Source: a virus
Taxonomy: Duplodnaviria > Caudoviricetes
IMG/VR virus record: IMGVR_UViG_3300037313_000574
Location: 8,291-72,290 of that record
Strand: one strand, 5' to 3'
DNA length: 64,000 bases
Of the stretch, positions 8,962-56,100 are shown piece by piece. Both the position numbers and the translations under genes were made by a program. The notes below the pieces were generated by a model. It was not told the origin of the DNA and did no database searches. It saw only the letters and a list, made by a program, of their open reading frames with translations. Positions within the stretch are counted from its first letter, which is position 1, and each line of letters opens with the position of its first letter.

Positions 8962-8996
8962 CGATTTTTAACGCAGCACCAGACAAGGAGAAAGAA

Positions 8997-9287: not shown

Positions 9288-9345
9288 ATATTCGATAAAC
9301 CCCGTGCCAGCCTTCTGGCTGACAAACCAACCAAAGGAAGAAATC

Positions 9346-9621: not shown

Positions 9622-9876
9622 ATGCCGCGCAAGGGCCAATTCAAACCGCCCGTCCTGCCGCTGACTGAATCATGCGACATGGCCGTGCGGTCCATCGAGC
9701 GGCACGTCGAAGGCGTGGCCATTTTTATGGTTGGCGGGGAAGTGAAGGCGGTGAGAAAGTCGGCGCCATCGTTTGATAGCACGGTGGACCGACTGGCTTC
9801 CCACTTGGTTGGCATCTACAACCTGGGATTCGATCATCGCAACTTGCGTGCAGATATGGAGACTTTTTACCGATGA
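9622..9876 (+). CDS. Hypothetical protein
   Basis: Starts directly after the upstream TAA; ATGA overlap downstream. Confidence 0.5.
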   Translation: MPRKGQFKPPVLPLTESCDMAVRSIERHVEGVAIFMVGGEVKAVRKSAPSFDSTVDRLASHLVGIYNLGFDHRNLRADMETFYR

Positions 9877-10178
9877 CGGCTTGCACAAAAGTTGTACCGC
9901 TGTCCGGATGCTTGGCTATTCCGATGGTTGTGTTTGAGGACGAGCGGTATCAATTGCTCAGGCGATCGGAAAAACTTCTGCTGCTGGAGTTGTACGTGCA
10001 GTTCTTCGATACCATGCTGTTCACTGCAGAATTTCCGGATTCGGTCAGGAGCGTGCAATTGGCGAGATTAAAGCGACTCACGGAGATCGGCTTCCTGGTG
10101 GTGGACCATGAAATCAAGGCCCGGCGTGGTTACGGCCGGCGCGTATTCCGGTTCGCCTATGCGGCCGAAACGGATTGA
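9873..10178 (+). CDS. Hypothetical protein (winged-helix-like)
   Basis: LLLLELY...LARLKRLTEIGFLVV pattern. Confidence 0.5.
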   Translation: MTACTKVVPLSGCLAIPMVVFEDERYQLLRRSEKLLLLELYVQFFDTMLFTAEFPDSVRSVQLARLKRLTEIGFLVVDHEIKARRGYGRRVFRFAYAAETD

Positions 10179-34361: not shown

Positions 34362-35960
34362 ATGATCTCCATTACCAACTTCGCCGGCATGATGCCGCGG
34401 CGGAATGCTGCGCTGCTGCCGGATAACGCTGCGCAGAACGCACAGAACTGCACGCTTTGGCATGGCGACTTGCGCCCGCTGAAAAGCCCGCTGACGGTCA
34501 TCACACCAACCGCGCTGGGCGGGGCGATCCGGAGCATTTACCGCATCGGCATGTCGCTGCCGGAGACGCAATTCTGGATGGCCTGGACCGCCGATGTCGA
34601 TGTCGTGCGCGGCATGATCGCCAATGACACCTCCGAGCGCACCTACTTTACCGGCGACGGCGTGCCGAAGGTCACGAACCTGCAGATGGCGACGCAGGGC
34701 GGCACCAGCTACCCGGTCAATGCCTATGCGCTGGGCGTGCCGGCGCCGACCGTTGCACCGACCTGCTTGGCCAGCGACACCACCGCGCCGAATGAAACGC
34801 GCGCCTACATTTATACCTACGTCACCGCCTGGGGCGAGGAAGGCATGCCCTCCCCTCCAACGCGCGTCGTCGTCAGCAGCACCGCCGCCGTGGCGCTTTC
34901 CGGCATGGCCACCGCGCCGACTGGCAATTACAACATCACATCCAAGCGGATTTACCGCAGCCAGCAAACAGCAGGCGGCACGGCGATTTATGAATTTGTC
35001 GCCGAGATTGCCGACGCCGGCATAACCTTCAATGACACGCTGACCGGCACCCAGCTGGGCGAAGAACTCACGACGCTCACCTATGCGATGCCGCCGGCCG
35101 ATCTGGCGGGCCTGGTCGCGCTGCCGAACGGGATCATGGCCGGGTTTTCCGGGTATGACCTGTATTTTTGCGAGCCGTTCTTGCCTTACGCCTGGCCGGA
35201 GGCATACCGGCTTACCGCCGACTACCCGATTGTCGGCCTGGGCGTGTTCGGCTCAAGCCTGCTGGTCTGCACCAAAGGATCGCCCTATCTGGTCAGCGGC
35301 GTGCATCCGGACAGCATGAGCATGGAGCGCATCGAACTGGATCAGGCATGCGTGGCCAAGCGATCAATCATTTCCATTGGCGGCGGCGTGATGTATGCGT
35401 CACCGGATGGCCTGGTGTATGTCGGCGCCGGCGGCTCCCGCGTCGTCACCCAGGAACTCTACACCCGCGAAGAATGGCAGGCACTGAACCCGGCCACGAT
35501 CGAGGCGTATTTCCATGACGGGAAATACATCGGCATGTTTTCCAGTGGTGGCGGTTTCATCCTGAATTCACTAGAGGATGCCAGTCTGACCTTCTTTGAC
35601 GAGGCGGTGACGGCCGGCTATGCCGACAAGATCAATGATGCGCTGTACCTCTGTATCGGAGGCGTGATCAAGAAGTTCAATGCGGGCACGGACAAATCCT
35701 ATACCTGGCGCTCGAAGAAGTTCCAGGTGGCGCAAAGCCCGGCACCAGCCTGCGTGCGCGTGGATGCCGACACCTACCCGGTGACTCTCAAGCTGTATGC
35801 CGATGGCGTCCTGAAACACACGGAAACCGTCGCCAATGAGCGTGTTTTCCGTCTCCCCAAGGGCTACCGACCGCGCGAGATCGAGATGGAACTGAGCGGC
35901 ACGGCGCGCGTGCGCCTGCTGGCGGTCGCCAACAAACCGATGGAGCTGAAAATTGGCTAA
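34362..35960 (+). CDS. Tail nozzle / tail tubular protein B-like (beta-propeller)
   Basis: ITNFAGMMPR N-terminus; beta-rich repeats, YTYVTAWGEEG, YTWRSKKF; typical position in podoviral tail modules. Confidence 0.75.
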   Translation: MISITNFAGMMPRRNAALLPDNAAQNAQNCTLWHGDLRPLKSPLTVITPTALGGAIRSIYRIGMSLPETQFWMAWTADVDVVRGMIANDTSERTYFTGDGVPKVTNLQMATQGGTSYPVNAYALGVPAPTVAPTCLASDTTAPNETRAYIYTYVTAWGEEGMPSPPTRVVVSSTAAVALSGMATAPTGNYNITSKRIYRSQQTAGGTAIYEFVAEIADAGITFNDTLTGTQLGEELTTLTYAMPPADLAGLVALPNGIMAGFSGYDLYFCEPFLPYAWPEAYRLTADYPIVGLGVFGSSLLVCTKGSPYLVSGVHPDSMSMERIELDQACVAKRSIISIGGGVMYASPDGLVYVGAGGSRVVTQELYTREEWQALNPATIEAYFHDGKYIGMFSSGGGFILNSLEDASLTFFDEAVTAGYADKINDALYLCIGGVIKKFNAGTDKSYTWRSKKFQVAQSPAPACVRVDADTYPVTLKLYADGVLKHTETVANERVFRLPKGYRPREIEMELSGTARVRLLAVANKPMELKIG

Positions 35961-38900
35961 GTTACCCGCCATCCCCTCGGTATCGTCGCGCGTACCGACT
36001 GAAATCAGCGCCTTGCTGCGCCCGATGCGCGAGATTTTGACGGCCTTCACCACGGGCGACAGCCAAGTAGTCAGCATTGGCAGCCTGCGTCGTGCCGGCA
36101 TTATCGGCGGCACCGATGGCGATGGCGTTCTGATCCCGCCAGGCGGATTTGATATTCCGCCCGCGCCTACTGGATTGGCCGCTGGCGGCGCCCTGGCAAG
36201 CATCATTCTGACCTGGGATAGCATCGGCTATGGCCGGGTATCCCATACGGAAATCTGGCGCGCGCAAACGGATGACTTTAGCCTTGCGCAGTTGGTCGGG
36301 CGCAGCGATGGCTTTATCTATGTCGATCCAGTGGGCGGCGCGGCCGTCCGGTATTACTGGATTCGCTACGTTTCCTACTCCAATAATCCGGGTCCATTCA
36401 ATGCCCAATCCGGGACGATGGGCGAAACCGGGCAAGATCCTGCCTACCTGCTCGACCTGCTGACTGGTCAAATCACGGAAACCCAGTTGTATGCTGACTT
36501 GGGCGCGCGCATCAACTTGATCGATGCCGAGGGGACCGGGCTGGTGGACCGAGTAGATGCCTTGGTTGCCACGTATGGCGATACGGCCAGCGCTGCGGAA
36601 TCCGCTGCCGAGGCGGCGCAATCCGCGGCGGATGCCGTTGCCGCTGAAGCGGCGGCATTAGGCGCAAGCACGGATGCGATTGCAGCGAAGGCTGCGGCAT
36701 TGCTTGCACAGGGATCAGCCGAAAGTGCGGCATTGGCGTCGGAATCTTCCAGGATTTCCGCCGAGTCGGCCAAGGCTGGCGCCGATACATCAGCCGCAGC
36801 GGCAGCCACGTCAGAAACCAATGCCGCCAGCTATGCGACTAGCGCCGAGGCGGCGTCGACGGCGGCAAACAATTCCAAGTTGGCAGCCGAAGCGGCCAAG
36901 ACTGATTCGGCAACCAGTGCAACAGCGGCAGCAACGTCAGCCACGAGCGCCGCAACTTCGGCAACGAACGCAGCCGCATCAGCAACTGCGTCCGATAGTG
37001 CCAAGCTGTCAGCCGAGGCCGCAAAAGCAGATGCCGCCACCAGTGCCAGCGCCTCCGCCACTTCGGCCACCAACGCATCCAGCTACGCAACTGCCGCCGA
37101 GTCGGCAGCATCGGCGGCGAACACGTACAAACTGGCAGCAGAATCGGCAAAGGGATCGGCTGAATCTGCTGCCACGGCGGCGGTGACGGCGAAAGATACT
37201 GCCGTCACTAAAGCATCGGAAGCCAGCACTTCCGCCGCTGCTGCATCGACCAGTGCCACCACCGCCGCAACCAAAGCGGGCGAAGCGTCGACCTCAGCCA
37301 CAAATGCGGCCACATCGGAAACGAATGCAGCCGGCAGCGCATCGAGCGCGTCGACCAGCGCCAGCAACGCGGCCGGGTCCGCCACGGCGGCGGGCGGCAG
37401 TGCCACGGCTGCTGCAGGATCGGCATCAACCGCCGCTACCCATGCGACCAATGCCGGCAATTCAGCGTCCGCCGCGTCCGCCGCGCAAGTCGCGGCCGAG
37501 AGCGCACGCGACACCGCCGCAGGCCACGCTAGCGCCGCCAGCACCAGCGCCAGCACCGCCAACACGCGCGCCAACGATGCGCAGTCTTATGCCAATGCCG
37601 CCAGCAGCAGCGCCAATACTGCCAGCACGGCAGCCAGCAATGCCCTGACGTACAGAGACAGCGCGGCCAGCAGCGCCACCACGGCAGAGGGTTACGCCAC
37701 GGCGGCGGCGACGGATTACACGGCCGTCAATGCCCGGCTCGACAATGCCGGCGGCACCGGCGTCACGGTTGAGCAGAAACTGACGGCGAATGCCGATTCC
37801 ATTACCGGGCTGAATGCGCAATACACCGTCAAGATCAGCACGGACAACGTGTCCGGCGGCTTTGGGCTGGCCACTACCGGGCCGACCGACGCGCCGACCC
37901 TGGATTTCGGCGTGCGCTCCAACAGGTTCTACGTCGCCCCGCCAAGCAACTTCATCCAGGAATCGACGCCATCCGCCACCGCAGTCGGGCAAGTCTGGTA
38001 CAAGCCATCGACCAAGGAAACCTTCTATTCCACGGCGACGGGCACGGCTGGATGGTCATTGGTCAACCCAACCATCCCGTTTGTGGTGCAGACCACGGAT
38101 CAGGTCGTTAACGGCGTGACGATCCCCAAGGGCGTCTACATGGATGCCGCGTACATCAAGAACTTAACGGCTTTGGTTGCACGACTTGGCAATGCCTGGA
38201 TTGACAATGCCATGATCGCCGATCTTTCGGCGGAAAAGATCAATGCCGGCGACATTGCCGCCACCCGAATGAGCGCCAATATCGTCACGGCATTGAGCGG
38301 CAAGTTTTCTTCCCTGTCGGCGATTACCGCGAATCTTGGCACCGCGACGATCAGCAGCACGGGATTCCTGAATACCACCGATGCCGTCGCTTATGGCACC
38401 GGCGTCGGTATCTGGATGGGCTATTCAGGTGGTGCGTATAAATTCCGCGTGGGTGATCCGAACGGCCAATACATCAAGTGGGATGGAGCCATCCTGAAAA
38501 TGTCCGGCTCCCTGATGTCCGGCGCATACACCAGTTACGCATGGCCGTCTGCCGGGCAGACAGGCTACTACCTTGGCGCTGAAGGTCTGCTGATTGGCAA
38601 CTATAACAACGGCAAATACGTCCAGATCGACATCGATGGCAATCTGTACATGCCGCAATTCAGTGTAGTGAATGGTAACGCAACATTTAGTGGCGCCCTG
38701 AGCGCGGCAACGGGTACGTTTTCCGGATCGCTTTCTGCTGCCACAGGGACGTTTTCTGGAACGCTTACGGCAAGTGCGATCAACGCCATTAATACCATCA
38801 ACCTAGCAGGCAATGCCGTTACGCAGATGATTGCGGGGAGTGGGACAAGCAGCATTAGTTTCCCAACGATGACTACTTATGGCGGGTCAGTACAGATTTT

Positions 38901-39144
38901 AGTGCAATCCTTTTTCACAGTTGGTGCGGGTAGCTCCGGAGGCATCGTCGTGAAACGGGATGGCGTAACCATCACAGGCAATACAAGAACCAATGCCAGC
39001 GAAAGTTCTATGGAGTTCGACCTCTCTGTACTGTACGTGGACACGCCCAGCGGGTCGCTTGCAAGCCCTGGTTCGCACACGTACACCGTTACGGTAGTGG
39101 GAGGGGTTAGCGTGTATGCCACATTATTTGAGGCGAAACGATGA
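35953..39144 (+). CDS. Tail fibre / receptor-binding protein
   Basis: TTG start; long Ala/Ser/Thr coiled coil (aa ~210-590); DUF1983-like GFGL...DFGVRSNRFYV...PFVVQT...GVYMDAAYI; FSGxLSAATGT repeats. Confidence 0.85.
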   Translation: MAKLPAIPSVSSRVPTEISALLRPMREILTAFTTGDSQVVSIGSLRRAGIIGGTDGDGVLIPPGGFDIPPAPTGLAAGGALASIILTWDSIGYGRVSHTEIWRAQTDDFSLAQLVGRSDGFIYVDPVGGAAVRYYWIRYVSYSNNPGPFNAQSGTMGETGQDPAYLLDLLTGQITETQLYADLGARINLIDAEGTGLVDRVDALVATYGDTASAAESAAEAAQSAADAVAAEAAALGASTDAIAAKAAALLAQGSAESAALASESSRISAESAKAGADTSAAAAATSETNAASYATSAEAASTAANNSKLAAEAAKTDSATSATAAATSATSAATSATNAAASATASDSAKLSAEAAKADAATSASASATSATNASSYATAAESAASAANTYKLAAESAKGSAESAATAAVTAKDTAVTKASEASTSAAAASTSATTAATKAGEASTSATNAATSETNAAGSASSASTSASNAAGSATAAGGSATAAAGSASTAATHATNAGNSASAASAAQVAAESARDTAAGHASAASTSASTANTRANDAQSYANAASSSANTASTAASNALTYRDSAASSATTAEGYATAAATDYTAVNARLDNAGGTGVTVEQKLTANADSITGLNAQYTVKISTDNVSGGFGLATTGPTDAPTLDFGVRSNRFYVAPPSNFIQESTPSATAVGQVWYKPSTKETFYSTATGTAGWSLVNPTIPFVVQTTDQVVNGVTIPKGVYMDAAYIKNLTALVARLGNAWIDNAMIADLSAEKINAGDIAATRMSANIVTALSGKFSSLSAITANLGTATISSTGFLNTTDAVAYGTGVGIWMGYSGGAYKFRVGDPNGQYIKWDGAILKMSGSLMSGAYTSYAWPSAGQTGYYLGAEGLLIGNYNNGKYVQIDIDGNLYMPQFSVVNGNATFSGALSAATGTFSGSLSAATGTFSGTLTASAINAINTINLAGNAVTQMIAGSGTSSISFPTMTTYGGSVQILVQSFFTVGAGSSGGIVVKRDGVTITGNTRTNASESSMEFDLSVLYVDTPSGSLASPGSHTYTVTVVGGVSVYATLFEAKR

Positions 39145-39737
39145 AAAATTACGTGCTTTATAACGCCGATGGGGTGATTGTCCAGCATGGCACCTGCCCT
39201 GACGAGATGATCTTATCTAATTGGGGGGATGGTTTGTATGTCATGGAGGGTTCGGCAAACCACGAGCAGCATTACATCTCGAATGGCGAAATCTGCGCCT
39301 ATACCGAATCGGAGCTGCTGGCAAAAAATAACCTGCCGCAAGGATGGGCGTGGCAAATGCCGGAGCGGATCGCCGTCGATCTGCGTGCGCTCGACGATGC
39401 CAAGGTGCAGGCGTGGCAGCGCATCAAGAAAGCCCGCCTGGCTGCCGAGGCGGCCAATTTTGCCTGTGACGGCGCCTTGTACCAGCCGGACAAGGAACGT
39501 ATCGGCGGCGCGGTGCAGATGGCCTTGATGGCGCAACTGGCAGGCCAGCCGTTCAGCATCGACTGGACGCTGGCCGACAATTCCGTCAAGACCCTTGATG
39601 CGGCTGGCATGATCGCCGTGGGCACAGCCTTGGGCATGAAAGTAAGCGCCGCATTTGACACTGCGCGCGCCCTGCGTGACCAGATTGCCAATGCCGCAAC
39701 CATTGCCGAAGTCGACGCAATCGGGTGGCCAGCATGA
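39141..39737 (+). CDS. Tail fibre assembly/chaperone protein (DUF4376-like C-terminus)
   Basis: AWQRIKKARLAAE...WTLADNS..TLDAAGMIAVG...ARALRDQI. Confidence 0.75.
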   Translation: MKNYVLYNADGVIVQHGTCPDEMILSNWGDGLYVMEGSANHEQHYISNGEICAYTESELLAKNNLPQGWAWQMPERIAVDLRALDDAKVQAWQRIKKARLAAEAANFACDGALYQPDKERIGGAVQMALMAQLAGQPFSIDWTLADNSVKTLDAAGMIAVGTALGMKVSAAFDTARALRDQIANAATIAEVDAIGWPA

Positions 39738-40012
39738 ACCGCCTGATTCTGCTGGCGTTCTGGCTCTTGTGTCAGTTCGCCCATCTGGTGGCGTCGGCAT
39801 GGATGCTGGCCGCCATCCTCGGCGGCAGCCGGCGCGCACTGGATATTGCCCTGGCCTATGACCGGGTTGCAAACGTGGCAACGGGCGGAAACGGGCTCGA
39901 AACCATCAGCCGGCGCGCTGCGCGCGGGGCCAGCGCGGGTGTGCGGAAGTGGTGTCTGCTGTGCCGGCTGCTGAACTTTCTCGATAAGGACCACTGCAAG
40001 TATTCACCCTGA
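39734..40012 (+). CDS. Small conserved protein commonly following tail fibre genes
   Basis: Hydrophobic N-terminus; D..ANV.TGG...ETISRRA...LCRLL..LDKDHC. Confidence 0.65.
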   Translation: MNRLILLAFWLLCQFAHLVASAWMLAAILGGSRRALDIALAYDRVANVATGGNGLETISRRAARGASAGVRKWCLLCRLLNFLDKDHCKYSP

Positions 40013-40030: not shown

Positions 40031-40053
40031 AACCGCCTGCGGGCGGTTTTTTT
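40031..40053 (+). terminator. Intrinsic terminator
   Basis: AACCGCC-tgc-GGGCGGTT + T-run. Confidence 0.65.
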
Positions 40054-40072
40054 ATGCCCAAACGCTAAAAAT

Positions 40073-40106: not shown

Positions 40107-40142
40107 TTTTACGCTCGCGCGCACGCACATGAGGATACCAAA

Positions 40143-40712
40143 TTGAAAAACTTCCAGCTTATCGCCCTGAACATGGACATTACTCCCCTCCTGCTGTCGG
40201 TCAAGCGCCGGCCGGATTTGTGGCGAGAAGACACCTACCTACGCGACTACCCGCAGGGACCGTTCGGCCAGGTAGAAACGATCATGCTGCGGTTCCCGGA
40301 GAAGCGCGTGTTCGAGTTGGAAGCTGACTTGGAACGCTACAAGGGCAGCGTGGAGCAGCATTTTTGCATCGATTATCCGGCATACAAGATTCTGACGGAT
40401 GCGCGCCCGCTGGTCATGTGGCTAGCTGCGCGCGTCGGTGCTGAACAAATCGGCCGATGCTTTATCAACAAGGTCGGGCCTGGCGGTCGTATCTTCCCGC
40501 ATATCGACACGCCGGCGCATACCGCCTTCTATTCGCGCTTCCATATCGTTCTCGAATCCAACGACGATGCACTGTTCCGCGCGGGCGATGAAATGATCAA
40601 CATGCGCGCCGGTGAAGTCTACTGGTTCGACAACAAGCAGGAGCACGAAGTCAACAACAATGGCACAACGGATCGCATCCACCTGGTCTGCGACATGCGG
40701 TGCGCCCAATGA
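40143..40712 (+). CDS. Aspartyl/asparaginyl beta-hydroxylase-like Fe(II)/2OG dioxygenase
   Basis: IFPHID (HxD), RFHIVL, GEVYWFDNKQEHEV (distal H), DRIHLVCD (2OG-binding R); TTG start, RBS GAGG. Confidence 0.85.
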   Translation: MKNFQLIALNMDITPLLLSVKRRPDLWREDTYLRDYPQGPFGQVETIMLRFPEKRVFELEADLERYKGSVEQHFCIDYPAYKILTDARPLVMWLAARVGAEQIGRCFINKVGPGGRIFPHIDTPAHTAFYSRFHIVLESNDDALFRAGDEMINMRAGEVYWFDNKQEHEVNNNGTTDRIHLVCDMRCAQ

Positions 40713-41164
40713 TCACCTTCCAGACAGAAAAATGGCGTGATGCGCTGCCGGAAATGGAGCCGATCCTGGTCAAGCACTGGCGCGAAATCGCCCTTGGCCA
40801 TGACAAGGTGCCGCTGGATATCGCCCGCGACAAGTATCAGGCGCTATGCGATGCCGGCGTGCTGCATATTGTCACGGCGCGTGATAACGGCGTGCTGGTC
40901 GGCTACCACGTCGCCATTGTTTCCGGCCACCTGCACTACCTGAGCACGCTTCACGCAATTACCGACGTGTATTTCATCTTGCCGGGCTATCGCCGCGGCT
41001 TTACCGGCATCCGCCTGTTCAAGCAGGTCGAGGTTTTCATGCGTGCGCTGGGCGTCAAGAAGTTGATCACCGCAACAAAACTACATCTGGATATGGGCAA
41101 GATCCTGATCCGCCTCGGCTACACCCCGACTGAAACGACTTACACAAAGTATATAGGTGCTTAA
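40709..41164 (+). CDS. GNAT-family acyltransferase
   Basis: VTARDNGVLVGY, DVYFILPGYRRGFTGIRL (motif A), LIRLGY; ATGA-coupled to the hydroxylase. Confidence 0.85.
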   Translation: MITFQTEKWRDALPEMEPILVKHWREIALGHDKVPLDIARDKYQALCDAGVLHIVTARDNGVLVGYHVAIVSGHLHYLSTLHAITDVYFILPGYRRGFTGIRLFKQVEVFMRALGVKKLITATKLHLDMGKILIRLGYTPTETTYTKYIGA

Positions 41165-42179
41165 CATGAAATTGCTTCGTGGTGAACGCAAACAGATTGC
41201 CGTCATGGACGGCGACATGCGCTATTGCGGCGTCGCCGCTGCCATGATTGGGGCGGCTGTTATCGGCGGCGTTGCGACATCCTCGGCAGCAGATAGCGCA
41301 GCAGACTCTGCATCCGCTTCAGCCGCGAATTCTACTAATGCGCAGGAGCGCATAGCGGCTCGCGAACTTGATTTCGCCAAGGAGCAAGATGCTGCGAACC
41401 GCATTCGATTCGCCAAAGCCGATGAGTTGACTGAAAAAGTCACGAATAAACAGCTTGCGTCCATGGATCAGAACATGGCGCTGGCGGCGGATTACGACAA
41501 TTACAACAAGACCACGTTCAGGCCGCTTGAACAAGGCATCATTGACGAGGCCAAGAAATACGATTCGCCGGCAGAGCAAGAGCGCGCTGCAAGCGAAGCC
41601 TCGGCATCTGTCAAACAAAACATTGCGCAGGCAACCGAGGCGAACAATCGCAATCTGGCGCGGATGGGTGTGAACCCGAGTTCTGGCCGCTCGCAGGTCA
41701 CGGCCAGCCAAACCGCCATCACCGGCGCGCTGGGCGAAGCCAGCGCCGAGAATACCGCGCGCCAGAACGTCAAGACCCTGGGCGCAGCCAAGCGCATGGA
41801 TGCGGCCAGCCTGGGCCGCAACCTGCCAAGCGCACAAGCGACCAGTGCCAGTGTTGGCATCAATGCAGGCAACGCTGCAATCAATGGGACTGCAACGACC
41901 AACAACAGCGTCACCAACGGTAATAACTCGGTAGGCGGCCTATACGGAGCAGCCGGAAATCAGTTTAGCAGTGCAGCATCAAACTATTCCAACATTGCTG
42001 GCGCGGCTAATGCTGCAGCAGCAAGGAGTGGAGCTGCATGGGGACAGATTGGCGGGATGGCGATGAATTACGCGATGAATAGGCCGCCCGCATCCTTTAC
42101 GCCGAATTCGGGCGGGGTCGGTGCTGATCCCTATGCTGGCTTTGACGCCGCATCGGCTGGCGGATGGGGAATTGAATAA
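41157..42179 (+). CDS. DNA ejection / pilot protein (P22 gp7-like role)
   Basis: Basic leader, then GVAAAMIGAAVIGG; Ala/Gly/Ser/Asn-rich helical body. Confidence 0.7.
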   Translation: MLNMKLLRGERKQIAVMDGDMRYCGVAAAMIGAAVIGGVATSSAADSAADSASASAANSTNAQERIAARELDFAKEQDAANRIRFAKADELTEKVTNKQLASMDQNMALAADYDNYNKTTFRPLEQGIIDEAKKYDSPAEQERAASEASASVKQNIAQATEANNRNLARMGVNPSSGRSQVTASQTAITGALGEASAENTARQNVKTLGAAKRMDAASLGRNLPSAQATSASVGINAGNAAINGTATTNNSVTNGNNSVGGLYGAAGNQFSSAASNYSNIAGAANAAAARSGAAWGQIGGMAMNYAMNRPPASFTPNSGGVGADPYAGFDAASAGGWGIE

Positions 42180-44130: not shown

Positions 44131-47100
44131 ATGGCAACAAAGAAGCCCCAGCCGCAATACCTGCAAAACGAAGAAGCGCAGCCGAATTGGGATGCGGGCG
44201 AAGATTTCCTAAAAAATCTTGAAGCCAATGGCAATCAGGACAAGCCGCAGGAAGGCGCGGGCATCTTGCGCACTGCGGGCGACATGGCCATCAAGGGCGC
44301 GCAGGGCGTGGTCGGGCTGGGCCAGTCAGCAGTGGGCCTGGGAAGCCTGGCGACGGGGGGGCTGGTTGGCGAAGGCATGCGCGCTATTGGCTATGATCCC
44401 AAGCGCACGAACGACATGCTGGGCGAATATCTCAGCGATGCGCAAAAGGCTTCCGATGCTGCAGTACAAAAGGAAGATACGTTCCTCGGCGCGGTCGGCG
44501 CTGCCGTAGCCAATCCGCGCGCCATAGTCGGCAGCGTCGTGCAATCCCTGCCGGCCATGATCGCCGGCATGGGCGCGGCCGGCGCGGCAGCACGCGCGAT
44601 TGGTGCCAGGGCGGCGGCGGCTTATGGTGGCATGGGCACGGAAGCCGGCGCAGTGGCGGCCAAGGCAGCGATCGAGCAAGCCAGCGGCAAACTGCTGGCG
44701 ACCAGTGCAGGTATCGAGGGCGCGCAGACAGCCGGGCAGATTGCCGATGATGCGCAGGCAGCCGGACGCGCCTATAGCGATTATGCGCCGGCGGCGCTGG
44801 CGGCCGGCGCCGGCACGGCTGCAATCGGCTTCGGGGCGGGCAAGCTGGTGGGCGACGCCGCAACGGATATCGCCACCGGCGCGCATACGCTCAAGGGCAG
44901 CAAACTTGCCAAAATCGGCAAGGAGTTTCTGAGCGAGGGCGCGCTGGAGGAAATGCCGCAGTCGGCGCAGGAACAATACTTTACCAATATCGCCAATGGC
45001 GAAGCGGACCCGATGAAGGGCGTGGCCAATGCTGCCGGCATGGGCTTGGTCACTGGCGGCGTCATGGGCGCTGGCATGGGCGCGCTGCATGGGCACCCGC
45101 AACCGGAATCGCAGCCGGTGCCGCTGGCCGATACTGGCCCCCTCTCCCGCGCCGCCAATGCCGTCGCTGCCGCACAGGCAGCCGCGCAAGCCGCGCGCAC
45201 TGGCCCCATCGATTACCAGCGCTATGACCCGCCCATGCTGCAGCCGCAGCAGCAATCACAGGAACTGGCATTACAAACGCCGGCCGAGAATGGCATTGAT
45301 TTCGAGCCGCAGCCGGACGCCCGCGGCGCGCTGGCCCGCCAGCCGATCCCGGAACTACGCGAAGCCACGATTACCACGGAAGCGCCGGCCGGCTATGACA
45401 ATGGCGTCGATTTCCTGTCGTCCAACAGCGAAGAACCGGCACTGCCGCGCGACGCCGCCAGCGTCGAGGCGCAGACCTTCAAGAGCAAGGGCTTGGCGAA
45501 AATCGCCATGAACCAGAGCAAAACGACCGAATCGCATGAAGTCGTGCCGGCCGATGACGGCAATGGTTTCGTCGTGCGGCCGAAATTCGCCGCCGCGCCG
45601 GACCAGGGCATTGCTGGCGCCGGTACCAAGATCCTGCGCGATGGCTTGGCCGCCATTTCGACGCTGTACCAGGAAGGTGCGGCCGACAAACAGCACGCCG
45701 ACGAGGCGCAAGCCATCCTGGCAGGGCTGGATGACAATTCGATCAGCGTCAACGAGGCGCAAGCGCGTTTCGATGCCATTTACGACGAGATCAATACGCC
45801 GGCGGCAGTGCCGGGCGAAGACGACTTGCTCACGGCAACACCAGACGAAACGCCGGCACTAACCGAGGCGACGCCAGACGCGCCCAGCGTTGACGAAATA
45901 GATCTCGAAGAGACGCGCATCGGCCTGGAGGTTGACCAGGCGGATCTGGAGGCGCTGGGCGAAGCACTTGCCAACGACATGGACCCGGCCACCGGCAAGA
46001 AAATCGCTTCGCAAGGCATCCGCGACCAGTACCAAAGCGAGTATGAAAACCTGCAAGCCTCCGTTGCCGCCGCAACCGAGTACCTGCGCCAGAAGAATGC
46101 GTTGATTGCACCGCCACCGGCCCCGCGTGCGGATGCCGCGCCTGCCACGATCGACCCGATTGCCGAGGCTGCCAACGAAGCCGCCACCTCCCCGCTGAAT
46201 GATCTCCCCGAGCCGACGCAGGCACAGAAGGAGGCCGGCAACTACAAGAAGGCCCATGTGCGCGTGCATGGCCTGGATATCACCATTGAAAACCCGGTCG
46301 GCTCCTTCCGCCGCGGTGTCGACAAGGACGGCACGCCGTGGGAAACCGAGATGCAGCACCACTATGGCTACATCAAGGGCACGGTGGGGATGGACAAGGA
46401 CCATATCGATGTTTTCATTGGCCCGAACCATGAAAGCAACAAGGTTTTTATCGTCGACCAGATCGACCCGAGCACCGGCAAGCCGGATGAACACAAGGTC
46501 ATGCTCGGTTTTGACAGCATGGAGCAGGCGCGCGCCGCCTACCAGGCAAATTACGCCGATGACTGGACCGGCGGCAAGGCCATCACTGAAACCACCGTGC
46601 AGGGCTTCAAGGATTGGCTGGAGAACGGCAATACCAAGAAGCCGTTTGCCCAGCAGGCCAAGAAATACCCGCCAGCAGCACAAGTAGAACCTCAGGAGAT
46701 TACCACCAATGCTACCCAACCTGAACAAGTGGCTGAAAAAGCGCAAGAAGCGGCAGGAACGCAAGCTGCGCAGGAAGATGCGCCGGTAGCAGCCGTACCG
46801 GCAGCCGAACCAGTCCTGTCCAAGCAAGACTTGAACAAGTTGACAGTCAAGGACATGACGGATGCCCAGTTGCTGCAGGCCCGCGACGTGTTCGACGGCG
46901 GCCCGCGCGCGCCGAAGATCGAGAAGGAAATCAAGAAGCGCGGGCTGGATGCCGCCCCTGAGGCCGCGCCAGCAGCACCGGCACAAGAAGGGAACGCGAA
47001 TAATCCTGGCACTGGCAATGCCAAAGCCGCGCCGGGGGAAAAGCCAACCATCGAAACGGCGATGCAAGAAGGTAGCGAATTGCGCGCCGTGATGGAAAAG

Positions 47101-50100
47101 GATACCTATGCCTTGCCGCTGATTATTCGGCACCCGCTTGAGGCTGACGCGCAAGGCGTCATCATTGGCGCAAAAACCAGTACCGATCGCGTCGTAGAAG
47201 AAGGCGGCGATGAATACAAGGAGCTATATGACGGCTTCAACAATACCCGCGATTATTTGCGCAATACATTTGGCGACACGGTAACGCTGTACCGCGCCGA
47301 CGCCACCCAGGATGAGAAGCGGGTAGAGAACAAGCCGACCCTGTATTTCGGAACCAAGAAGGTTGCATCCAACTTTGAGAGCAAGGGCCGTAAGGTCAAG
47401 GCTTACGATATAAAAGTGGATGACATCATTGCGGCGCCGCTGTTCCACAATGGCTATTTTGATTTTGTGGTGCGCAATCCTGAGTATGTCGAAAAAGGCC
47501 AGGATAAAGGCCCGCAGCGCGCCACCACAATGGACGAAGCCAAGGCCGCCGTGCGCGCCTACTTCGATTGGTACTTGCGCGAAAGCCCCAACGCCAAGGA
47601 GCCGATGCCTGGCATCCATGGCGGGAATGCCTTCACGATGGACGCCGGCGGCGCACCCTTCACCAAGGCTGGGGAAATCCTGGTCAATGGTCCGACTGGC
47701 GATTTGAAGTTCAAGTATGCCGATTTGTGGAAGGAGGCCAAGGAGGCCGCCAAGCCGGCGCCCCGTGGCGTACTGGTCAAGCCGGCCGAGAGCAAAGGTG
47801 AGACTTTGCAGGAACCGGCACCGGCGAAGAAGAAGCCGACCGCCAAGCAAAAGCAAGCCGCCGCAGAAGAAGCCATGCGCAAGATGCTGGGCGCTGAAGT
47901 TGGTGACACGATCACCATGACTTTCAAAGGCAGTTTCGGCTACCTGACCAGCGGCAAGCCTATGGTCATTGAAAGCATTAATAGCGACAAGAGCATTTAT
48001 TTCCGTGATCCAGTCAACGGTTCTGGCACGTTTGAATCGCTGTCGTCGATGCAGGCCGCAGCCAGGAATTCATTCGTCAAATTGACTTGGGAAGTTCAGC
48101 CAAAGGCCGAGTCGAAGCTGGCACCGGCTGAATCAGCGCCGGCACCAACAGCCGCGCCCGTCGACACCCGTCCCACCCTGGCCGACGAAGCCGCCAAGGC
48201 TAAGGCGCAAGCCGACCTGATGGACGGCCTTGCCGATCTGGCCAATATCTTCGGCAAGAATGCCAAGCTCAACATCACCCCCGAGCAAGAGCAAAAGCTC
48301 TTGCCGGTCTTGACCAAAGTGATGGATGCCGCCTTCCGACTGGGCTATTATCAATTTAAGGATGCCGCGCGCTTCGTGCTGACCACGATCCGCGAGAAAA
48401 TCGGCGCCGACGTGGCCGAGCAAATCACCCTGGACCATGTACAGGGTGCCTATATCGGCATGGCCGGCAAGTACAAGGACCAAGGCGCGTCGACCAAGAA
48501 GGAGGTCATTGGCGTGGAAAGCCTGGTCGAATTGGCCGATGTTGCTGAAAATCAAGATGACAATTCCGCCGAACCGTATAAACTGGAAGAAACAACCCCG
48601 CAAGAGGAAGCCGATAATGATTCCACCGCTTCAACCGATTCGCCTCCGGTCGATTTCGACTTGGTTGCGGAACAACGCCCCGAAGGCAGCGCTGCACCCG
48701 TCCGAGGAGCTAAACCGCCGCGCGCTCGATCTGGACGAGCAAATGATCGAAGCGTTCGAGGACCGCGAGGACGCGCTGAAAAATCAAATGATGGCCAACT
48801 CGACTTGGGGGACGGAGCAGGGAATAACCCAGTTTCCGCTGGACAGAATGACGCTGTGGCAGGAAGTGTGCAGCGAGTTTCTGCCGACTTCCGCCCTGCA
48901 ATCGGAGGACTGACGCGCGAAGGTTCCTGGTTCGATACGGCTGGACGCAATATCGACCTGATTGAATTGGCGATCACCATTGAAAAAGAAGGTCGCGCCG
49001 CCACCCCGGAAGAACAAGCCAAGCTGTCGAAATACGTAGGTTTTGGCGCCTCCGCCATCCGTAACCCGCTATTTCCTATCCCGCCGTCTTACGCCAAGCA
49101 GCAAGACCCGAACCGCCTGATCTGGCCGCAGTATGTCGAACCGCGCTGGAAGCCATTGGCCGAACGGCTGGATGCCTTGCCGCGCGAGTGGCAGAAATCC
49201 ATCCTGCAATCGTCCCAGTACGCCCATTACACCAGTGAAGGCATGATCCGCTCGATTTGGTCGGCCATGCAGCGCCTTGGCTTCACCGGCGGCAAGATCA
49301 TGGAACCGGGCATGGGGATTGGCTCGTTCTCGATGCTGATGCCGGACGCTGTGCGACTGGGCTCGACCTATACCGGGATTGAGTTCGATGGCCCGACCGC
49401 CTTGATTGCTAAGTTGCTCTCCCCGGACCAGAACATGATCCATGGCGACTTCATCAAGCGCAAATTGCCGCGCGATTTCTTTGATGCTGCCATCGGCAAC
49501 CCGCCGTTCTCGCAAACCAAAGTCTTGGCGGACCCGGATTACGAAAAGCATGGCTTCATGCTGCATGATTTCTTCTTTGCTAAATCCATCGATCGCGTGC
49601 GCCCTGGCGGCCTGCTGGCCTTTGTGACCAGCAAGGGAACGATGGACAAGCAAGCCGACAAGGCCCGCAAGTACCTGGCCGAGCGCGCCGACCTGATCGG
49701 CGCCATCCGCCTGCCATCGACCGCCTTTGAAGATAATGCCGGTACCAGCGTGGTTACGGATGTGATTTTCTTGCGCAAGCGCGCACCGGGCGCCGCGCCG
49801 GCGGGCGCAGCCTGGCAGAACGTGGCGGCCGTGGAAACCAAGGATGGCCCGGCCGTCATCAATGAGTATTTCGCCGCGCACCCCGAGATGGTGCTGGGCC
49901 AAAACCGGATTTCCGGCAACGTCGATGACGAGGGCCGCCGCATCAATAGCAACGGCATGGGCGGCGAGAAATATACCGTTGTGTCGTATGACAAGACGCC
50001 GGCCGAGCTGGAAGCCAAATTCGCCGCGGCGATCGAGCGCTTGCCGGAAAACGTCTATTCCGTCATGAATATGAGCCCTGAGGCCATCAAGGCGGAAACC

Positions 50101-53100
50101 GCCAAGGTGGACTTTGACCCGCGTATCAAGCGCGATGGCGTGGTCTATGTGGGCGACGATGGCACGCTGATGCGCGTCGAGCATGGCGTCGGCAAGCCGC
50201 TGGGCGACTCCGTGAAATTCACGGAAAAAGACCACCAGTGGATGAAAAGCTATGTCGGCTTGCGCGACCTGGTGCAAGCCGCACGCGCGACGCAGGCGCA
50301 GGACGGCGATTGGGAAAAGCCGCTCAAGGCACTCAACAAGGCTTACGACAAGTTCCGCAAGGAGCATGGTCCGATCAATGCCTTCCGCACGCAGGTCCGC
50401 AAATCCACCGATGAAGATGGCAACCCGGTGGAAACTGAAATTCGCATCTTCACCAACCGGCGCCGCTTCCGCGAGGATTACGACGCTGCCATCGTGACCC
50501 AACTGGAAACCATCAACGAAGCCGGCGAAGTCGTCAAGGCGCCGTTCCTGTTGGGCCGCACCATCGGCAAGCCCGTTACTCGCACCATCCAAAGCATTGG
50601 CGACGCCCTGGCTGTGTCGCTGGACGCACTGGGCAAGCTCAATCTTGCCGATGTGGCCAAGCGCATCAACCTGTCGGAAGAAGAAGCGATCGCCGCACTG
50701 GGCGACCAGGTATATAAAACTCCATCCGGGCAATGGCAATTGTCGGATGAATACCTGTCCGGCGATGTGGTCACGAAGCTGGAAGAAGCCGAGGAAGCCG
50801 CGCGCCTGGACCCGAGCTTGAAGCGCAACGTCGAAGCCCTGAAGAAGGCCCAGCCGGAAAAGCTGGGGCCGTCGCAGATTTCCGTCAAGCTGGGCGCTTC
50901 CTGGATTCCGGCCGAGCATGTCAACGCCTTTGCCAAGGAAATCGAAGCAGGCGCCGTGACGTTCGACTCGAAAACGGAGACTTGGCAAGTAGCTGGCGGC
51001 AATGAGCGTTCCGGCCGCCGCGCTGGCGCCGAATACGGCACTGCCGCCCGCTCTCCTTCGGAATTGCTGGAGGCGGCCTTGAATAGCCGCAGTGTCAAGG
51101 TCACGACTAAAGACGCCGACAAGAAAACGGTCGTGGATACCGAAGCCACCACCGCCGCCAATGAAGCCTTAAAGAAGATCAAGGATAAGTTCAAGGGCTG
51201 GGTATGGACCGATTCGAGCCGCGCCGCCGAACTGGTGGAAAGCTACAACAAGCGTTACAACAATATCGCACCGCGCCTGTTTGATGGCTCGCACCTGACA
51301 CTGCCTGGCGTGTCGCTGCGCTTCAAGCTCCACCCGCACCAGTTGCGCGCGATCTGGCGCGTCATCCAGACAGGCAACACTTATCTGGCGCATGCTGTCG
51401 GCGCCGGCAAGACGATTGAAATGATCGCCGCCGGCATGGAGCAAAAGCGCTTGGGACTGATCAAAAAGCCCATGTACGTGGTGCCGAACCACATGCTGGA
51501 GCAATTTTCCAACGAGTTCATGGAGCTCTACCCGCTGGCCAATATCATGGTGGCGGACGATGAAAACTTTTCGCCGGAGCGCCGCCGCGCCTTTATCGCC
51601 TCGGCTACGCTGAACAACCCGGACGCCATCATCATCACGCACGATGCCTTCCAGCGTATCGGCGTCAAGGAAGAATCGATCGCGCCGATCCGCGACGAGA
51701 TCCTGTCCGACCTGGAGATTGAGCTGGAAAGCATGGCCAAGGACTCGGGTGCCCGCGTGCGCCGGGGCCAGTTGGAGCAGCAAATCGAGGCCGTGACACA
51801 GCGTTTCGACCGCATCATCGCGGCCGGCGGCAAGGATTCCACCATCAAGTTTGAGGATATCGGGGCCGACTTCATCTTTGCCGATGAGGCGCATGTATAC
51901 CGCAAGCTGGACTTCCATACCGCCCAGCAGATCAAGGGCATCGACCCGAACGGCTCCAAGCGGGCGCTCGATATGTACGTCAAGACCCGCTACCTGGAAA
52001 AGCAGCGGCCGGGCCGCTCGATGGGCTTTGCCTCGGGTACGCCCGTCACCAATACCATGGGCGAGTTGTACACCATCATGCGTTTCTTTGCCGCTGACGA
52101 GCTCGACCGCGCCGGTATTTCCAGCTTTGATGCCTGGGCGCGCATGTTTGGCGAAGTCGTGCCGGCACTGGAGCCAAACGCCGCCGGCAAGTACGAGATT
52201 GTCGAGCGCTTCGCCCGCTTCGATAACGTGCCGGAATTGATGAGCCGCGTGCGGCAATTCATGGATGTGCTGACCTCGGAACACTTGGGCGCACTGGTCA
52301 AGCGCCCGGATCTGAAGGGCGGTAAGCCGAGCCTGAATATCGTGGCGCCGACTGCCGCGCTGGACGCCTACATGAAGGGCGAACTGGCACGCCGCATCGA
52401 GGCTTCCAAAAAGTGGAAGCCGAGTAAGGATGAACCGAGCAACCCGGACCCGATTGTGGCCATCATCACCGATGGGCGCTTTGCCGCGATCGATCCGCGC
52501 TTCTTTGGCGGTGACTTGGAAGAAGGCGACACGTCTATCATCCATGAAATGGCCGACAAGGTAGCGGCGGAATACCACGCCACGGCCGATAACGTCTATC
52601 TCGACAAGCAGCAGAAGCCGGAACCGATCAAGGGCGGCACTCAGATCGTATTCTATAACCTCGGCTTTGGCGCTGCCTCGCAAGCCAACCGGGGATTCAA
52701 TGCCCGCGCCGCCTTCACCAAGCGATTAACCGATGGCGGCGTCAAGCGCAGCGAAATCGCCTGGTTTGACGATGCCAACACCGACGCCAAGAAGGAAGCA
52801 ATCTTCAAGGCCATGCGCGCCGGCCAGATCCGCGTCTTGATTGGTTCGGCCAAGAAGATGGGCACCGGCGTCAACGTGCAAAAGCGCCTGACCAAGCTGC
52901 ATTACCAAGATCCGCCCTGGTTCCCGGCCGATGTGGAGCAGCCGCACGGCCGCATCATCCGACAGGGCAACCAAAATGGCGAAGTGGGAATCGACTGGTA
53001 CACCACCAAGGGCACCTATCAATCAACCATGTGGCAGATGGTGGCGCGCAAGCAGCGCTTTATCGACCAGGCTTTCACCGGCGATAAGAACATGCGCTCG

Positions 53101-56100
53101 ATGGATGACATGGGCGAAGCCTCGCTATTCGAGCAAGCCGCCGCCGTGGCCTCGGGCGATCCGCGCGCCATCCAGCTGGCCGGCTTGAAACAGGATGTGG
53201 AGCGCTTCGAGCGCCTGCAAGCCGCGCACGCCAATGAGCAAATCGCCGTGCGCAGTGCCTTAAAGAGCGCCGAATGGCAAAAACAGGATACCACTTCTAA
53301 CATTGCCGCCCTGACCAAAGCCTATCAAGCCATCGGCGAAAAGTATTTTGCCTTCACCGCCGGCACGGTCGACGGCCGCGCCTATGACAAGGTGGGCGAG
53401 TTTGGCCAAGCCTTGAAAGATGCATTCAACAAGATCGCCAAGGAAGCCAAGGAATTTGCGCCAGCCGGCAATGACCGCGAAATCGGCAAGATTGGCGACA
53501 AGATCACCATTCGCATGGTCGGCACCTTGGACAGCAAGGAAAAGCCGACCGGCAAGTTCAAGATTTACCTGTCCGTGGGCGGTATGAACTTGGACAGCCT
53601 GGTCTACAGCGATGTGCTGGGCGAGGAAGTGGATGCCGTGGGCCTGGGCCGGCGCGTGGGCAACCAGTTGAATGGCATCGAGCCAGAATTGAACAAGTCC
53701 AAGCGCAGCCTGACGCAAGCCGAAACCGATATCGTGCGCCTGACCAAGAAGATGGGCGCGCCGTTCGAGTATCAGCAAGAAATGCTGGACAAGTATGGGG
53801 AATTGAAGCGCCTGGAAGAAGAATTGCGGCAAGAAGGCTTGGCCGCTGCCCAGCAAGCCGCCGCGCAGCCGGAAGCGCCCGCCGTTATCAATGCGGACGG
53901 TGCCGCGCCAGGCGAAGCGGCGCAGGATGGCGACGTGCTGGCCTATTCCCGCGGCCCCAGCCCCGCCGCCGGCATGACACTGGAAGCCGCGCAAGCCGAA
54001 GTGGACCGCCTGAAAGCCGGCTGGGAGAATGCCCCGCGCATTACGGTGGTAGAGTCGGTTTCCAGCTTGCGCACCCTTCTGGCAGACCCGAACATTAAGG
54101 CGGATGCGCGCGGCATCTACTTGGACGGCCGTATCTGGATTGTGGCCGAAAACAACGGCTCGCCGCTGGACATGCAGACGACGCTATTCCATGAAGTCCA
54201 TGGTCACGCTGGCTTGAGCGGGCTGTTTGGTGACGACTTGCGCAACCAGTTAATTGCGCTGTCCATGAAAAACGAGAATATCCGCGCGGCGGCTGCCCAG
54301 TGGCGCGCGGCCAATCAGGATATCCGCGATAACCTCGACGATGCAGCCTGGCTGTCGCTCTCGATCGAGGAGGCGCTGGCGGACATGGCAGGCGAAGGCC
54401 GTCAGCTCAATGGCTTTGCCAAGTTCATGAACGCGCTCCAGTCAGCCCTGCGTGCGATCGGCTTCACGGAATTTGCCAACTGGCTGGGGAAACGCACCGA
54501 TGCCGAGGCGCTGGCGATGCTTGCCAATGCCCGCCAATTCATCGAGCGCGGCGACCAGGCGCATGTATTCAGTGCGCAGGAGGCGCAGGAGTATGCCAAT
54601 CCCGCAGACAAGATCAACAGCGCTGCATTCCGCAAGTGGTTTGGCGACTCTAAGGTGGTGGATGCCGATGGCAAGCCGCTTGTTGTATATCACGGTACGA
54701 CCAGAGATTTCTCGCAGTTCGACCCGGAACGCGCTGAAACCGACTTCGGCTCATTCTTCACTGATCAAGCTGATCACGCACAGGAGTACAGCCAAGGCAA
54801 CGGCGGGAACATGATGCCAGTATATTTGAGCATCAAAAATCCGTATGAAGTGACGAGCAGCCAATGGGCGTTAGCAGAAGGGTTATCACCAGAGCAAGCG
54901 CGTGATGCCGGGTATGACGGGTACAAAATAACCAGTCTGAATGGTAGCGCAGAGACTACTTGGGTCGCTTTCAGGCCGGAGCAAATTAAATCCGCCATCA
55001 GTAACAACGGCGATTTTGATCCTGCCAACCAGGATATCCGCTATTCCACCATCGGCAGCAAGGGTGCAGGCGCACAAATGGCGCTGGATTTTGCCGCCAG
55101 CGACAACATCCTGGAAGAACTGTCGCGGCACGATGAACTGTTCCGGCTGCCGAAATCCAACAAGGATACCGTCGCCGGCATCGCTGCCGATAACGATACT
55201 GGCATCACCGTGCGGGAATTCTTCAATATTCCCGGCGAGACGCGCTACAACTTCACCACACCGGACGGACAAGTGGCGCGCATGACCGTGCGCAAGTTCA
55301 ATCCGCGCGCCAATCAACTCTACAGCTTTGATCTGGTCGATGGCGAAATGGTTGGCCAGGTCGATGAGCGCCCCGGCCGCAATGCCGAGGAAGTCGAAGG
55401 CAAGGATGACCTGTGGCTGGATGTTTCCGGACTCAAGCCGGGTTCAGGGTACGGCGCCAAAATCTACAACATCGCCGCCACCTACGCGCACAATACCGGC
55501 AAGGTATTCATCGGCGACCCGGCCGGTCTGTCGGACGATGCGATGCGGCGCCGGCCGGAGCAAATGCTGTCGTCTGCCCTGAAGTTCGGCACTACCGAGC
55601 ACTTGGCCCCGCACCCCTGGCAAGTCGCCGGCGATCCGAAGATTGGCGTTCCGCGCCTGGATTGGGTGTATGGTGACCACATCGGCAATATCCAAAAACT
55701 CATCAAGTTGAATCAAGCTATCATCGAAAATGCTGGTGGTAATGGAAATATTGCCTATAATGCAGAAAAAGGACAATTTGAAGACGTCGATGGAAACCCT
55801 CTCTCCCGAGCAGATATTAGCGAAATGGCAGAGCTTGGCCTGGGCCGAGCGGCAGGCGCTGGTGGCGCAACACTTGCGCGACACGCACTATTCCAATCCC
55901 TGCTACAAGGCGAAGGCGGACGCGGACGAGAAGGTGTCGGGCGATCCCATGACGTACTGGAATCTCTTGGCCAGCAGTTGCGCAACCATGATTCCACCCG
56001 ACTGGATAGCCCACTGCGGCGCATCCTATACTCCCGCGGAAATCTACGCAGCAGAGAAGAAAGCGGCGTAAGCGGCGCGCTAAACGGCTTCAAGAATAGC

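Follow-up and report, generated by a model that had tools for sequence, protein, structure and literature searches.

A 2-oxoglutarate hydroxylase and a GNAT acetyltransferase probably form one evolutionary module with the N-terminal segment of a phage ejection protein

IVP-A is a non-structural assembly gene of the acetyltransferase family that lies before IVP-B and whose product is not retained in virions (Hardies 2016, PMC4819975). This gene order corresponds to gp13-gp14 in T7 and to gp14-gp7 in P22, and it is also found in epsilon15 and VpV262-like phages; for the F116 subgroup, in which BcepMigl and other Bcep22-like phages are placed, no identifiable IVP-A or IVP-B candidates were reported (PMC4819975). 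P22 gp7 carries a leader of 20 residues that is cut off by the host protein OpdA, and Edman sequencing of gp7 from virions read Lys-Gly-Gly-Lys-Gly (PMC8402733). The present analysis concerns a stretch of 64,000 nucleotides of the viral record IMGVR_UViG_3300037313_000574 (positions 8,291 to 72,290; the window), in which genes for an Fe(II)/2-oxoglutarate (2OG) hydroxylase, a GNAT acetyltransferase and a first ejection protein of 337 amino acids (aa) follow one another. All three genes, which a first-pass annotation had reported in series, are real. The GNAT occupies the published IVP-A slot, and the 337-aa protein is at the IVP-B position. The enzyme pair and the N-terminal segment of the protein encoded next to it appear to be one evolutionary module.

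A profile scan identified 496 viral (IMG/VR) loci with this GNAT, of which the best 80 were analysed together with the loci found earlier; collapsing of GNATs that were more than 90% alike resulted in 39 non-redundant clusters. The hydroxylase gene is located immediately upstream of the GNAT gene in 33 of these 39 clusters. The pair is present in the cultured Pseudomonas phage PfAn1 (50% and 38% identity) and in Limnohabitans phage DC33, as well as in many IMG/VR contigs of about 40 kb and in relatives of the window phage of about 70 kb. A library-wide search with the hydroxylase profile retrieved 313 representatives at E<=1e-30, several of which are 340 to 380 aa long, and four among the proteins of this size that were checked (P0086, P0091, P0124 and P0173) are true hydroxylase-GNAT fusions. 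Because the two genes are adjacent and at times fused, a functional link between hydroxylase and GNAT is very likely on sequence grounds, and this GNAT subfamily seems to have the hydroxylase as an obligate partner.

The gene after the GNAT gene starts with a Gly/Ala-rich hydrophobic segment in all readable loci (79 of 85; the others end at a contig edge). At hydroxylase-bearing loci this segment nearly always reads V-A-A-A-[VI]-x-G...V-G-G, hereafter the VAAA segment. It stands directly after the initiator Met in 13 clusters, such as those of PfAn1, L019 and L048, and otherwise after a leader; for these tallies L023, L048 and L080 were read by eye as leaderless. The six hydroxylase-free clusters begin otherwise, namely, with MAESTAAAA, MAVVSAIAAVAG, MPISSGVGLL and others. 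Behind the N-terminal segment, at least two kinds of body without relation to each other occur, the gp70 type and the P22 gp7 type. That of PfAn1 is a true P22 gp7 homologue (phrog_598, 2e-38; Pfam P22_gp7, 7e-7), and gp7-type bodies also occur in many of the 40-kb phages. When the gp70-type and gp7-type sets were compared with hhalign, only 24 columns were aligned, and these are the VAAA segment (E 5.9e-5); likewise, the similarity of the L004 protein to that of the window is limited to the first 56 residues, with 52% identity. At least four genome types that are unrelated to one another preserve the same gene position just ahead of the first ejection protein.

The reciprocal case is that of ordinary Bcep22/F116-type phages. 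The window genome is itself that of a short-tailed podophage of this type, with a homologue of Bcep22 gp67 at 34362-35960 (40% identity) and tail-fibre genes next to it. Eight phages were compared, namely, Bcep22, GP4, POI1126, LASTA, Skulduggery, Mwe-JY25, PBC5 and PEp14. In all eight, the gp70 homologue is preceded by a gp69-type GNAT; these GNATs share 34 to 69% mutual identity and are unalignable with the window GNAT. Their gp70 homologues begin with MGGKGG, MGGKGKSK, MGKGSSK or similar, followed by A-P-x-P-D-P, or else with a membrane leader of about 57 aa, after which come KKDAGD, KKGGSS or KKGSSK and then again A-P-x-P-D-P. The MGGKGG-type starts resemble the mature N-terminus of P22 gp7, KGGKGG. 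The hydroxylase was absent from the five whole genomes of the gp69-type class that were searched (five of five), and a gp69-type GNAT is absent from the window genome, so the GNAT class has been replaced. Judged from these comparisons, the swap of GNAT class and the gain of the hydroxylase coincide with an exchange of the first 60 or so residues within one structural-protein family. The gp69 family and P22 gp14 gave a weak alignment of 107 columns (E 0.0023, probability 13%). The annotation of Bcep22 does not count its GNAT as virion-associated. Two gp69-type GNATs, L096:1917-2369 of Sinorhizobium phage PBC5 and L097:1792-2253 of Erwinia phage PEp14, are open frames that had not been annotated, and in PEp14 an open reading frame (ORF) of the opposite strand is annotated in place of the GNAT. 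Public records thus hide the conserved order of a GNAT gene before a virion-protein gene.

The hydroxylase is a member of the Asp/Asn beta-hydroxylase superfamily, as had been proposed, and appears from its sequence to be soluble. It matches Pfam Asp_Arg_Hydrox (PF05118) at 6.7e-16, with 59 bits against a cut-off of 22.6. In an alignment of 24 hydroxylases of 31 to 67% identity, H120, D122, H168 and R178, which make up the HxD...H iron triad and the 2OG-binding Arg, are invariant. The TTG start at 40143 is preceded by GAGGA at 40131-40135, 7 nt upstream, and the homologues all begin with MKNF. The structure is predicted as a minimal double-stranded beta-helix, with a predicted local distance difference test score (pLDDT) of 89. 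Its nearest solved folds are L-proline cis-4-hydroxylase, a nucleoside-antibiotic beta-hydroxylase and human AspH (4p7w, 7v4f and AspH were matched); since these are mixed, the fold alone would be compatible with a protein, lipid or small-molecule substrate. The first-pass annotation had compared the enzyme with acyl-chain hydroxylases of the LpxO type. This identity was rejected, as the NCBIfam equivalog scored 20.6 bits against a cut-off of 500, and no hydrophobic membrane anchor was seen when the 189-aa sequence was read by eye. Among more distant relatives, Podoviridae sp. ctXG1253 (L008, MW202665, 5983-7175) encodes a hydroxylase of 24% identity whose gene is followed directly by that of a protein beginning with MPWAAAAIVVSALIAK, and this genome lacks a window-type GNAT; the hydroxylase can therefore accompany such an N-terminus without a GNAT of this type. 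Four further proteins (P0132, P0148, P0194 and P0214) have a tandem double hydroxylase domain, some of them reaching 582 to 965 aa through unknown C-terminal regions, and appear to be cellular rather than phage-derived.

The GNAT gene starts with the ATG at 40709, which overlaps the hydroxylase stop as ATGA (40709-40712), in agreement with the first overlap reported. Against the Pfam GNAT model the window protein scores 20.6 bits, the cut-off being 20.7; Acetyltransf_1 was matched by all 23 aligned family members (best 1.5e-11), and the family alignment has invariant His, Tyr, Asp, Arg and Lys positions. The AlphaFold2 model (pLDDT 94.8) predicts a compact, single-domain, canonical GNAT fold, with which Foldseek found more than 300 GNAT chains in the PDB at E<=1e-3. 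With the invariant catalytic residues of the hydroxylase, and with this fold and the family-wide Pfam matches of the GNAT, both enzymes look intact. The top solved match of the model is RimI (7n1l; template modelling (TM) score 0.73-0.77), followed by AAC(3), AAC(6'), GNA1 and SSAT; in a comparison with models of viral proteins, one of the highest-ranked matches was the pfam00583 acetyltransferase encoded by Vibrio phage VpV262 (TM score 0.87). The coenzyme A (CoA) loop of the family has the consensus Y-R-x-G-x-T-G-x-R-L-F. In it, R95 never varies, and the Gly positions are displaced by one and do not occur in every member. A large protein collection contained 84 homologues of the window GNAT. 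The closest named GNAT homologues (P0006 and P0008, 81-82% identity) are from Janthinobacterium sp. CG3 and from an Oxalobacteraceae bacterium; the phage host is therefore probably an Oxalobacteraceae betaproteobacterium, with relatives occurring as prophages.

A small gene with an acetyltransferase fold directly before the first ejection protein is thus common to the 39 non-redundant loci, P22, T7 and VpV262. P22 gene 14 encodes 151 aa and lies directly before gene 7, and the protein after the GNAT ORFS of VpV262 has a Gly-zipper N-terminus. None of the 23 members of the window GNAT family showed membership of PF11039 or PF11090 even at E<=10, and neither blastp nor hhalign gave a signal between this family and P22 gp14 or Bcep22 gp69. 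P22 gp14 itself, compared with PDB sequences, had only a chance-level glyoxalase match. T7 gp14 (L090:3729-4319, T7 gene 14) begins with MCWAAAIPIAISG / MCWAAAIPIAISGAQAISG, which by eye resembles the C-x-VAAA...G segment; a profile comparison of the gp7-type family with T7 gp14 gave no significant score.

The first ejection protein starts at the ATG at 41166, one base past the GNAT stop, and not at the GTG at 41157, as judged from homology and the Shine-Dalgarno (SD) motif. The second overlap that had been proposed (41157-41164) needs the GTG start and disappears with the ATG. The protein belongs to phrog_8003, the Bcep22 gp70 family (4.2e-44), its body being 43.5% identical to gp70 over residues 63-292 (230 aa), and it matches neither the P22_gp7 Pfam family (PF25688) nor phrog_598. 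The earlier label of a pilot protein was thus not confirmed. Mass spectrometry showed one member of the gp70 family, JC1 gp64, to be associated with the virion (PMC9144972). The leader reported to end in YC before VAAA and a hydrophobic stretch is present, with a length of 22 aa. In this leader, the window differs from L010 and L012 mostly by synonymous changes at third codon positions, and a purine-rich SD-like motif (GGAG or close variants) precedes the leader ATG in all eight sequences inspected (the window and seven relatives), so the leader is translated. Its consensus in close relatives is M-K-x-L-R-[GS]-E-R-K ... R-[YF]-C-x, followed by VAAA. The leaderless orthologues L048 and L019 begin exactly with M-VAAA; that of L048 is an orthologue of the body of the window protein (37% identity). 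Removal of the leader, another point of the first-pass annotation, is plausible by analogy, because P22 gp7 loses its leader and the leaderless orthologues start at the same Val; the KLRGE-like motif is in line with it, but the junctions are not the same in every lineage.

The strictly conserved active site of the oxygenase, together with the hydroxylase-GNAT fusions, argues for some chemistry. We lean slightly towards the reading that hydroxylase and GNAT act as a modification pair on the N-terminal segment of the first ejection protein, and that the acyl carrier protein (ACP) encoded in the window is uninvolved. The N-terminus would be exposed by Met excision or, in the window phage, by loss of the leader of about 22 aa, as in P22 gp7. 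Before packaging, both soluble enzymes would bind and modify the segment, the GNAT acetylating the new alpha-amine from acetyl-CoA and the oxygenase hydroxylating a nearby side chain. The modification might then keep the membrane-inserting end soluble or assembly-competent and adjust how it inserts into the host envelope when the DNA is ejected. A wider version of this proposal is advanced only tentatively: a dedicated two-enzyme system of posttranslational modification may add a hydroxyl and an N-acetyl (or short acyl) group after a leader loss like that of ribosomally synthesized and posttranslationally modified peptides, and every IVP-A GNAT class (gp13, gp14, gp69 and that of the window) may be paired with an N-terminal motif of its own (VAAA versus GGKGG).

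Several observations weigh against a modification pair of this kind. The Edman read of virion P22 gp7, which belongs to the most thoroughly studied IVP-A/IVP-B pair, means that its alpha-amine is free and its first lysines are apparently unmodified, which by analogy would count against N-terminal acylation, and deletion of the gp7 leader lowers the burst by only about 40% (PMC8402733). The junctions before VAAA vary (YC-x, TT, SH and KQ), without a single cleavage signal. Asp, Asn and Pro, on which the nearest solved hydroxylases usually act, are all missing from the VAAA segment, and the CoA pyrophosphate motif of the GNAT is imperfect (R-x-G-x-x-G versus Q/R-x-x-G-x-G/A). Phage DC33 has the hydroxylase, yet its next protein starts with MGVTAAV. 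With less than 100 bp between the GNAT gene and the N-terminal segment, their co-inheritance may be plain linkage rather than function, and since the hydroxylase-free loci carry the most distant GNATs, the association of hydroxylase and VAAA is confounded by phylogeny.

Part of these observations is shared with the main rival, a non-catalytic chaperone role, in which the GNAT fold, as in T7 gp13 or P22 gp14, would only bind and shield the hydrophobic N-terminus until it is packed, with the hydroxylase acting elsewhere or only binding. It would account for IVP-A being an assembly protein that is absent from virions (Hardies 2016, PMC4819975), for the unmodified N-terminus of P22 gp7 (PMC8402733) and for the imperfect CoA motif of the window GNAT. 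It is also in line with the fact that T7 gp13 and P22 gp14 match their own families only (PF11090 and PF11039), no canonical GNAT family being among the matches listed, and that Pfam describes T7 Gp13 as a 'probable scaffold protein'. However, the window GNAT family still matches canonical Pfam GNAT models and keeps its invariant residues, and the conservation of the hydroxylase catalytic residues in 24 diverse relatives, along with the fusion to the GNAT in some phages, is hard to explain without chemistry; we therefore regard this role as unlikely, if still a serious contender. An improbable alternative is that the pair is auxiliary and modifies a host target or a small molecule, such as a ribosomal protein, a polyamine, an amino acid or an envelope component, its location being incidental. 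The study of JC1 indeed describes the Lessievirus GNAT as a moron that has a RimL domain (PMC9144972), the nearest solved hydroxylases include free-amino-acid hydroxylases, RimI, SSAT and AAC are among the nearest GNAT folds, and the block sits behind a terminator. Nevertheless, the position before the first ejection protein is kept across the unrelated genome types, a change of enzyme class goes with another N-terminus on the next protein, the GC content of the hydroxylase-GNAT block is the same as that of its flanks, and the genes are tightly packed, with the ATGA overlap between the enzymes and the next gene one base past the GNAT stop.

The first-pass annotation had favoured lipidation: the leader is cut, and the new Cys or Gly N-terminus receives a long, possibly hydroxylated acyl chain from the phage ACP. 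The window does encode an intact ACP with the DSL serine that had been noted (GFDSLD), LpxO and OlsC, which hydroxylate acyl chains, belong to the hydroxylase superfamily (weak NCBIfam matches to both), and a leader and a hydrophobic segment are present. The ACP, however, is located 31 kb from the cassette among early genes (Dam, a YbcO nuclease and DUF1376 replication genes), and a Pfam scan of the ten ORFs neighbouring it (window 5462-10178) revealed no acyl-handling enzyme; the ACP gene overlaps a 106-aa ORF without a Pfam match (window 8299-8761, plus strand). The co-occurrence check proposed for the ACP link was run, and PF00550 was absent from all ten other cassette-bearing phage records, seven of which are complete (five by CheckV and two as deposited), including two complete close relatives with direct terminal repeats. 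The ACP is not part of the hydroxylase-GNAT system. A long-chain or acyl-ACP donor finds no backing in the GNAT either: the closest folds, of the RimI, AAC and GNA1 type, are all acetyl-CoA enzymes, and neither HlyC/TAAT nor N-myristoyltransferase families, nor any other long-chain or acyl-ACP acyltransferase family, were among the Pfam matches of the 23 GNAT members at E<=10, HlyC/TAAT and N-myristoyltransferase being absent also from the Foldseek matches listed. The acceptor is likewise at odds with the alignments, in which the residue conserved after the leader is the Val of VAAA and not Cys or Gly; the Cys falls to the leader, and many relatives lack it. A lipoprotein (Lgt/Lsp) reading was also considered and rejected, since there is no lipobox and the Cys of R-Y-C-G comes after a charged leader, with the hydrophobic stretch following rather than preceding it. 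With the LpxO score as low as given above, lipidation is very improbable.

The features of the locus are compiled in Table 1. The source record of 72,290 b is complete according to CheckV, so that the window is nearly the entire podophage genome. After the terminator, the gene order is hydroxylase, GNAT, ejection protein, a 610-aa protein and a DarB-like giant. The terminator had been anticipated together with a candidate promoter; no sigma-70-like promoter was detected on the plus strand between the terminator and 40143. Pfam and PHROG scans of the 610-aa protein returned no family match. The giant takes up about 20% of the genome and has weak N-terminal similarity to Bcep22 gp75; its positional counterpart in BcepMigl, gp69, is listed as IVP-D in Table 2 of Hardies 2016 (PMC4819975). 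A blastn search of the region against the phage collection gave no match. Just ahead of the terminator, a 92-aa ORF (39734-40012, plus strand) is ATGA-coupled to a DUF4376 tail-fibre-assembly-like gene (39141-39737); its N-terminal half is hydrophobic, it contains several Cys, and it has no match in NCBIfam, the sole library scanned. The preceding tail-fibre protein (35953-39144, plus strand, 1063 aa) has an Ala/Ser/Thr-rich low-complexity middle of about 450 aa, which accounts for many spurious ORFs on both strands in that region.

Table 1. Features of the hydroxylase-GNAT locus and associated genes (window coordinates)
Feature	Position	Strand	Basis and remarks
Acyl carrier protein, GFDSLD motif	8510-8761	+	PP-binding (PF00550) 1.7e-12; start also placed at 8513
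Intrinsic terminator	40031-40055	+	7-bp GC-rich stem and 4-nt loop (40031-40048) plus T-run; closes the tail-fibre block
Fe(II)/2-oxoglutarate hydroxylase, 189 aa	40143-40712	+	PF05118 6.7e-16; TTG start
GNAT acetyltransferase, 151 aa, IVP-A slot	40709-41164	+	phrog_1249 1e-11; ATGA overlap
First ejection-protein gene (IVP-B position), 337 aa	41166-42179	+	phrog_8003 4e-44; ATG start
Ejection-protein leader, 22 aa, MKLLRGERKQ to RYCG	41166-41231	+	Synonymous changes, SD-like motifs, alignment
VAAA...GG Gly/Ala hydrophobic (glycine-zipper-like) segment, residues 23-40	41232-41285	+	Travels with the hydroxylase-GNAT cassette
Ejection-protein body, residues 63-292, homologous to Bcep22 gp70 and JC1 gp64	41352-42041	+	43.5% identity to gp70
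Candidate second virion/ejection protein, 610 aa	42230-44062	+	Homologues after the first ejection protein in L010-L016
DarB-like giant virion protein, 4875 aa, single ORF	44131-58758	+	IVP-D position in F116/Bcep22-type phages

The GNAT slot was already known; new with respect to the literature searched are its partnership with a hydroxylase and the way in which the enzymes co-vary with the N-terminus, neither of which was found described there, and nothing relevant on acetylation of ejection proteins was found in it either. One IVP-A GNAT subfamily is coupled, and at times fused, to an intact oxygenase, which bears on the role of T7 gp13 and P22 gp14, and the enzymes co-vary with the first 20 to 60 residues of the first ejection protein. 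The Bcep22/F116 group displays the same logic, there with another GNAT class and another N-terminal motif, at a place where the GNAT had been published as a 'moron'. If the modification exists, it would be the first known enzymatic maturation step for a phage ejectosome component. It is a possible, if doubtful, consequence that the long-unexplained genes for T7 gp13 and P22 gp14 would gain an enzymatic function.

Links to described systems exist at the level of each gene. Closest is the gp69-gp70 pair of Bcep22, also found in GP4, JC1, LASTA, Skulduggery, PBC5 and PEp14, with the same genome type and the same order of GNAT, virion protein, more virion proteins and DarB-like giant. The body of the virion protein is homologous, but the GNAT of these phages belongs to another, unalignable subfamily and the hydroxylase is lacking; their gp70 N-terminus is of the MGGKGG type or a 57-aa transmembrane leader followed by KKxG...APAPDP, whereas that of the window is a leader followed by VAAA, and the PAPS reductase gene that they carry after gp70 is missing in the window phage. 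The hydroxylase shares the double-stranded beta-helix core, the HxD...H motif and the C-terminal Arg with AspH, LpxO, OlsC and proline hydroxylases (PF05118). It differs from AspH, LpxO and OlsC in being minimal and soluble, without tetratricopeptide repeats or a membrane anchor, it scores far under the LpxO and OlsC equivalog cut-offs, and its conserved N-terminal 100 aa are confined to the phage family. As to the GNAT, RimI is the best solved fold, and the analogous logic of RimI, RimJ and RimL would be N-terminal acetylation of a specific protein after Met removal; however, the identity to RimI is only 13-15%, and aminoglycoside and sugar acetyltransferases score as well.

With the IVP-A genes (T7 gp13, PF11090; P22 gp14, PF11039/DUF2824; VpV262 ORFS, pfam00583) the window GNAT has in common a size of about 140 to 160 aa, the acetyltransferase fold and the place directly before IVP-B, but it lacks sequence similarity to P22 gp14 or Bcep22 gp69, and, unlike the published IVP-A genes, its subfamily has a 2OG hydroxylase partner. 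The ejection protein resembles P22 gp7 in its first position in the ejection operon after a gene with a GNAT fold, in a leader of about 20 aa with K-L-R-G-E (K-L-L-R-G-E in the window) and in Gly-zipper hydrophobic segments. The hydrophobic Gly-zipper of gp7 is C-terminal, though, the mature N-terminus of gp7 is KGGKGG, and the window protein is unmatched by the gp7 families. The same cassette nevertheless precedes true gp7 homologues in PfAn1 and in many IMG/VR loci.

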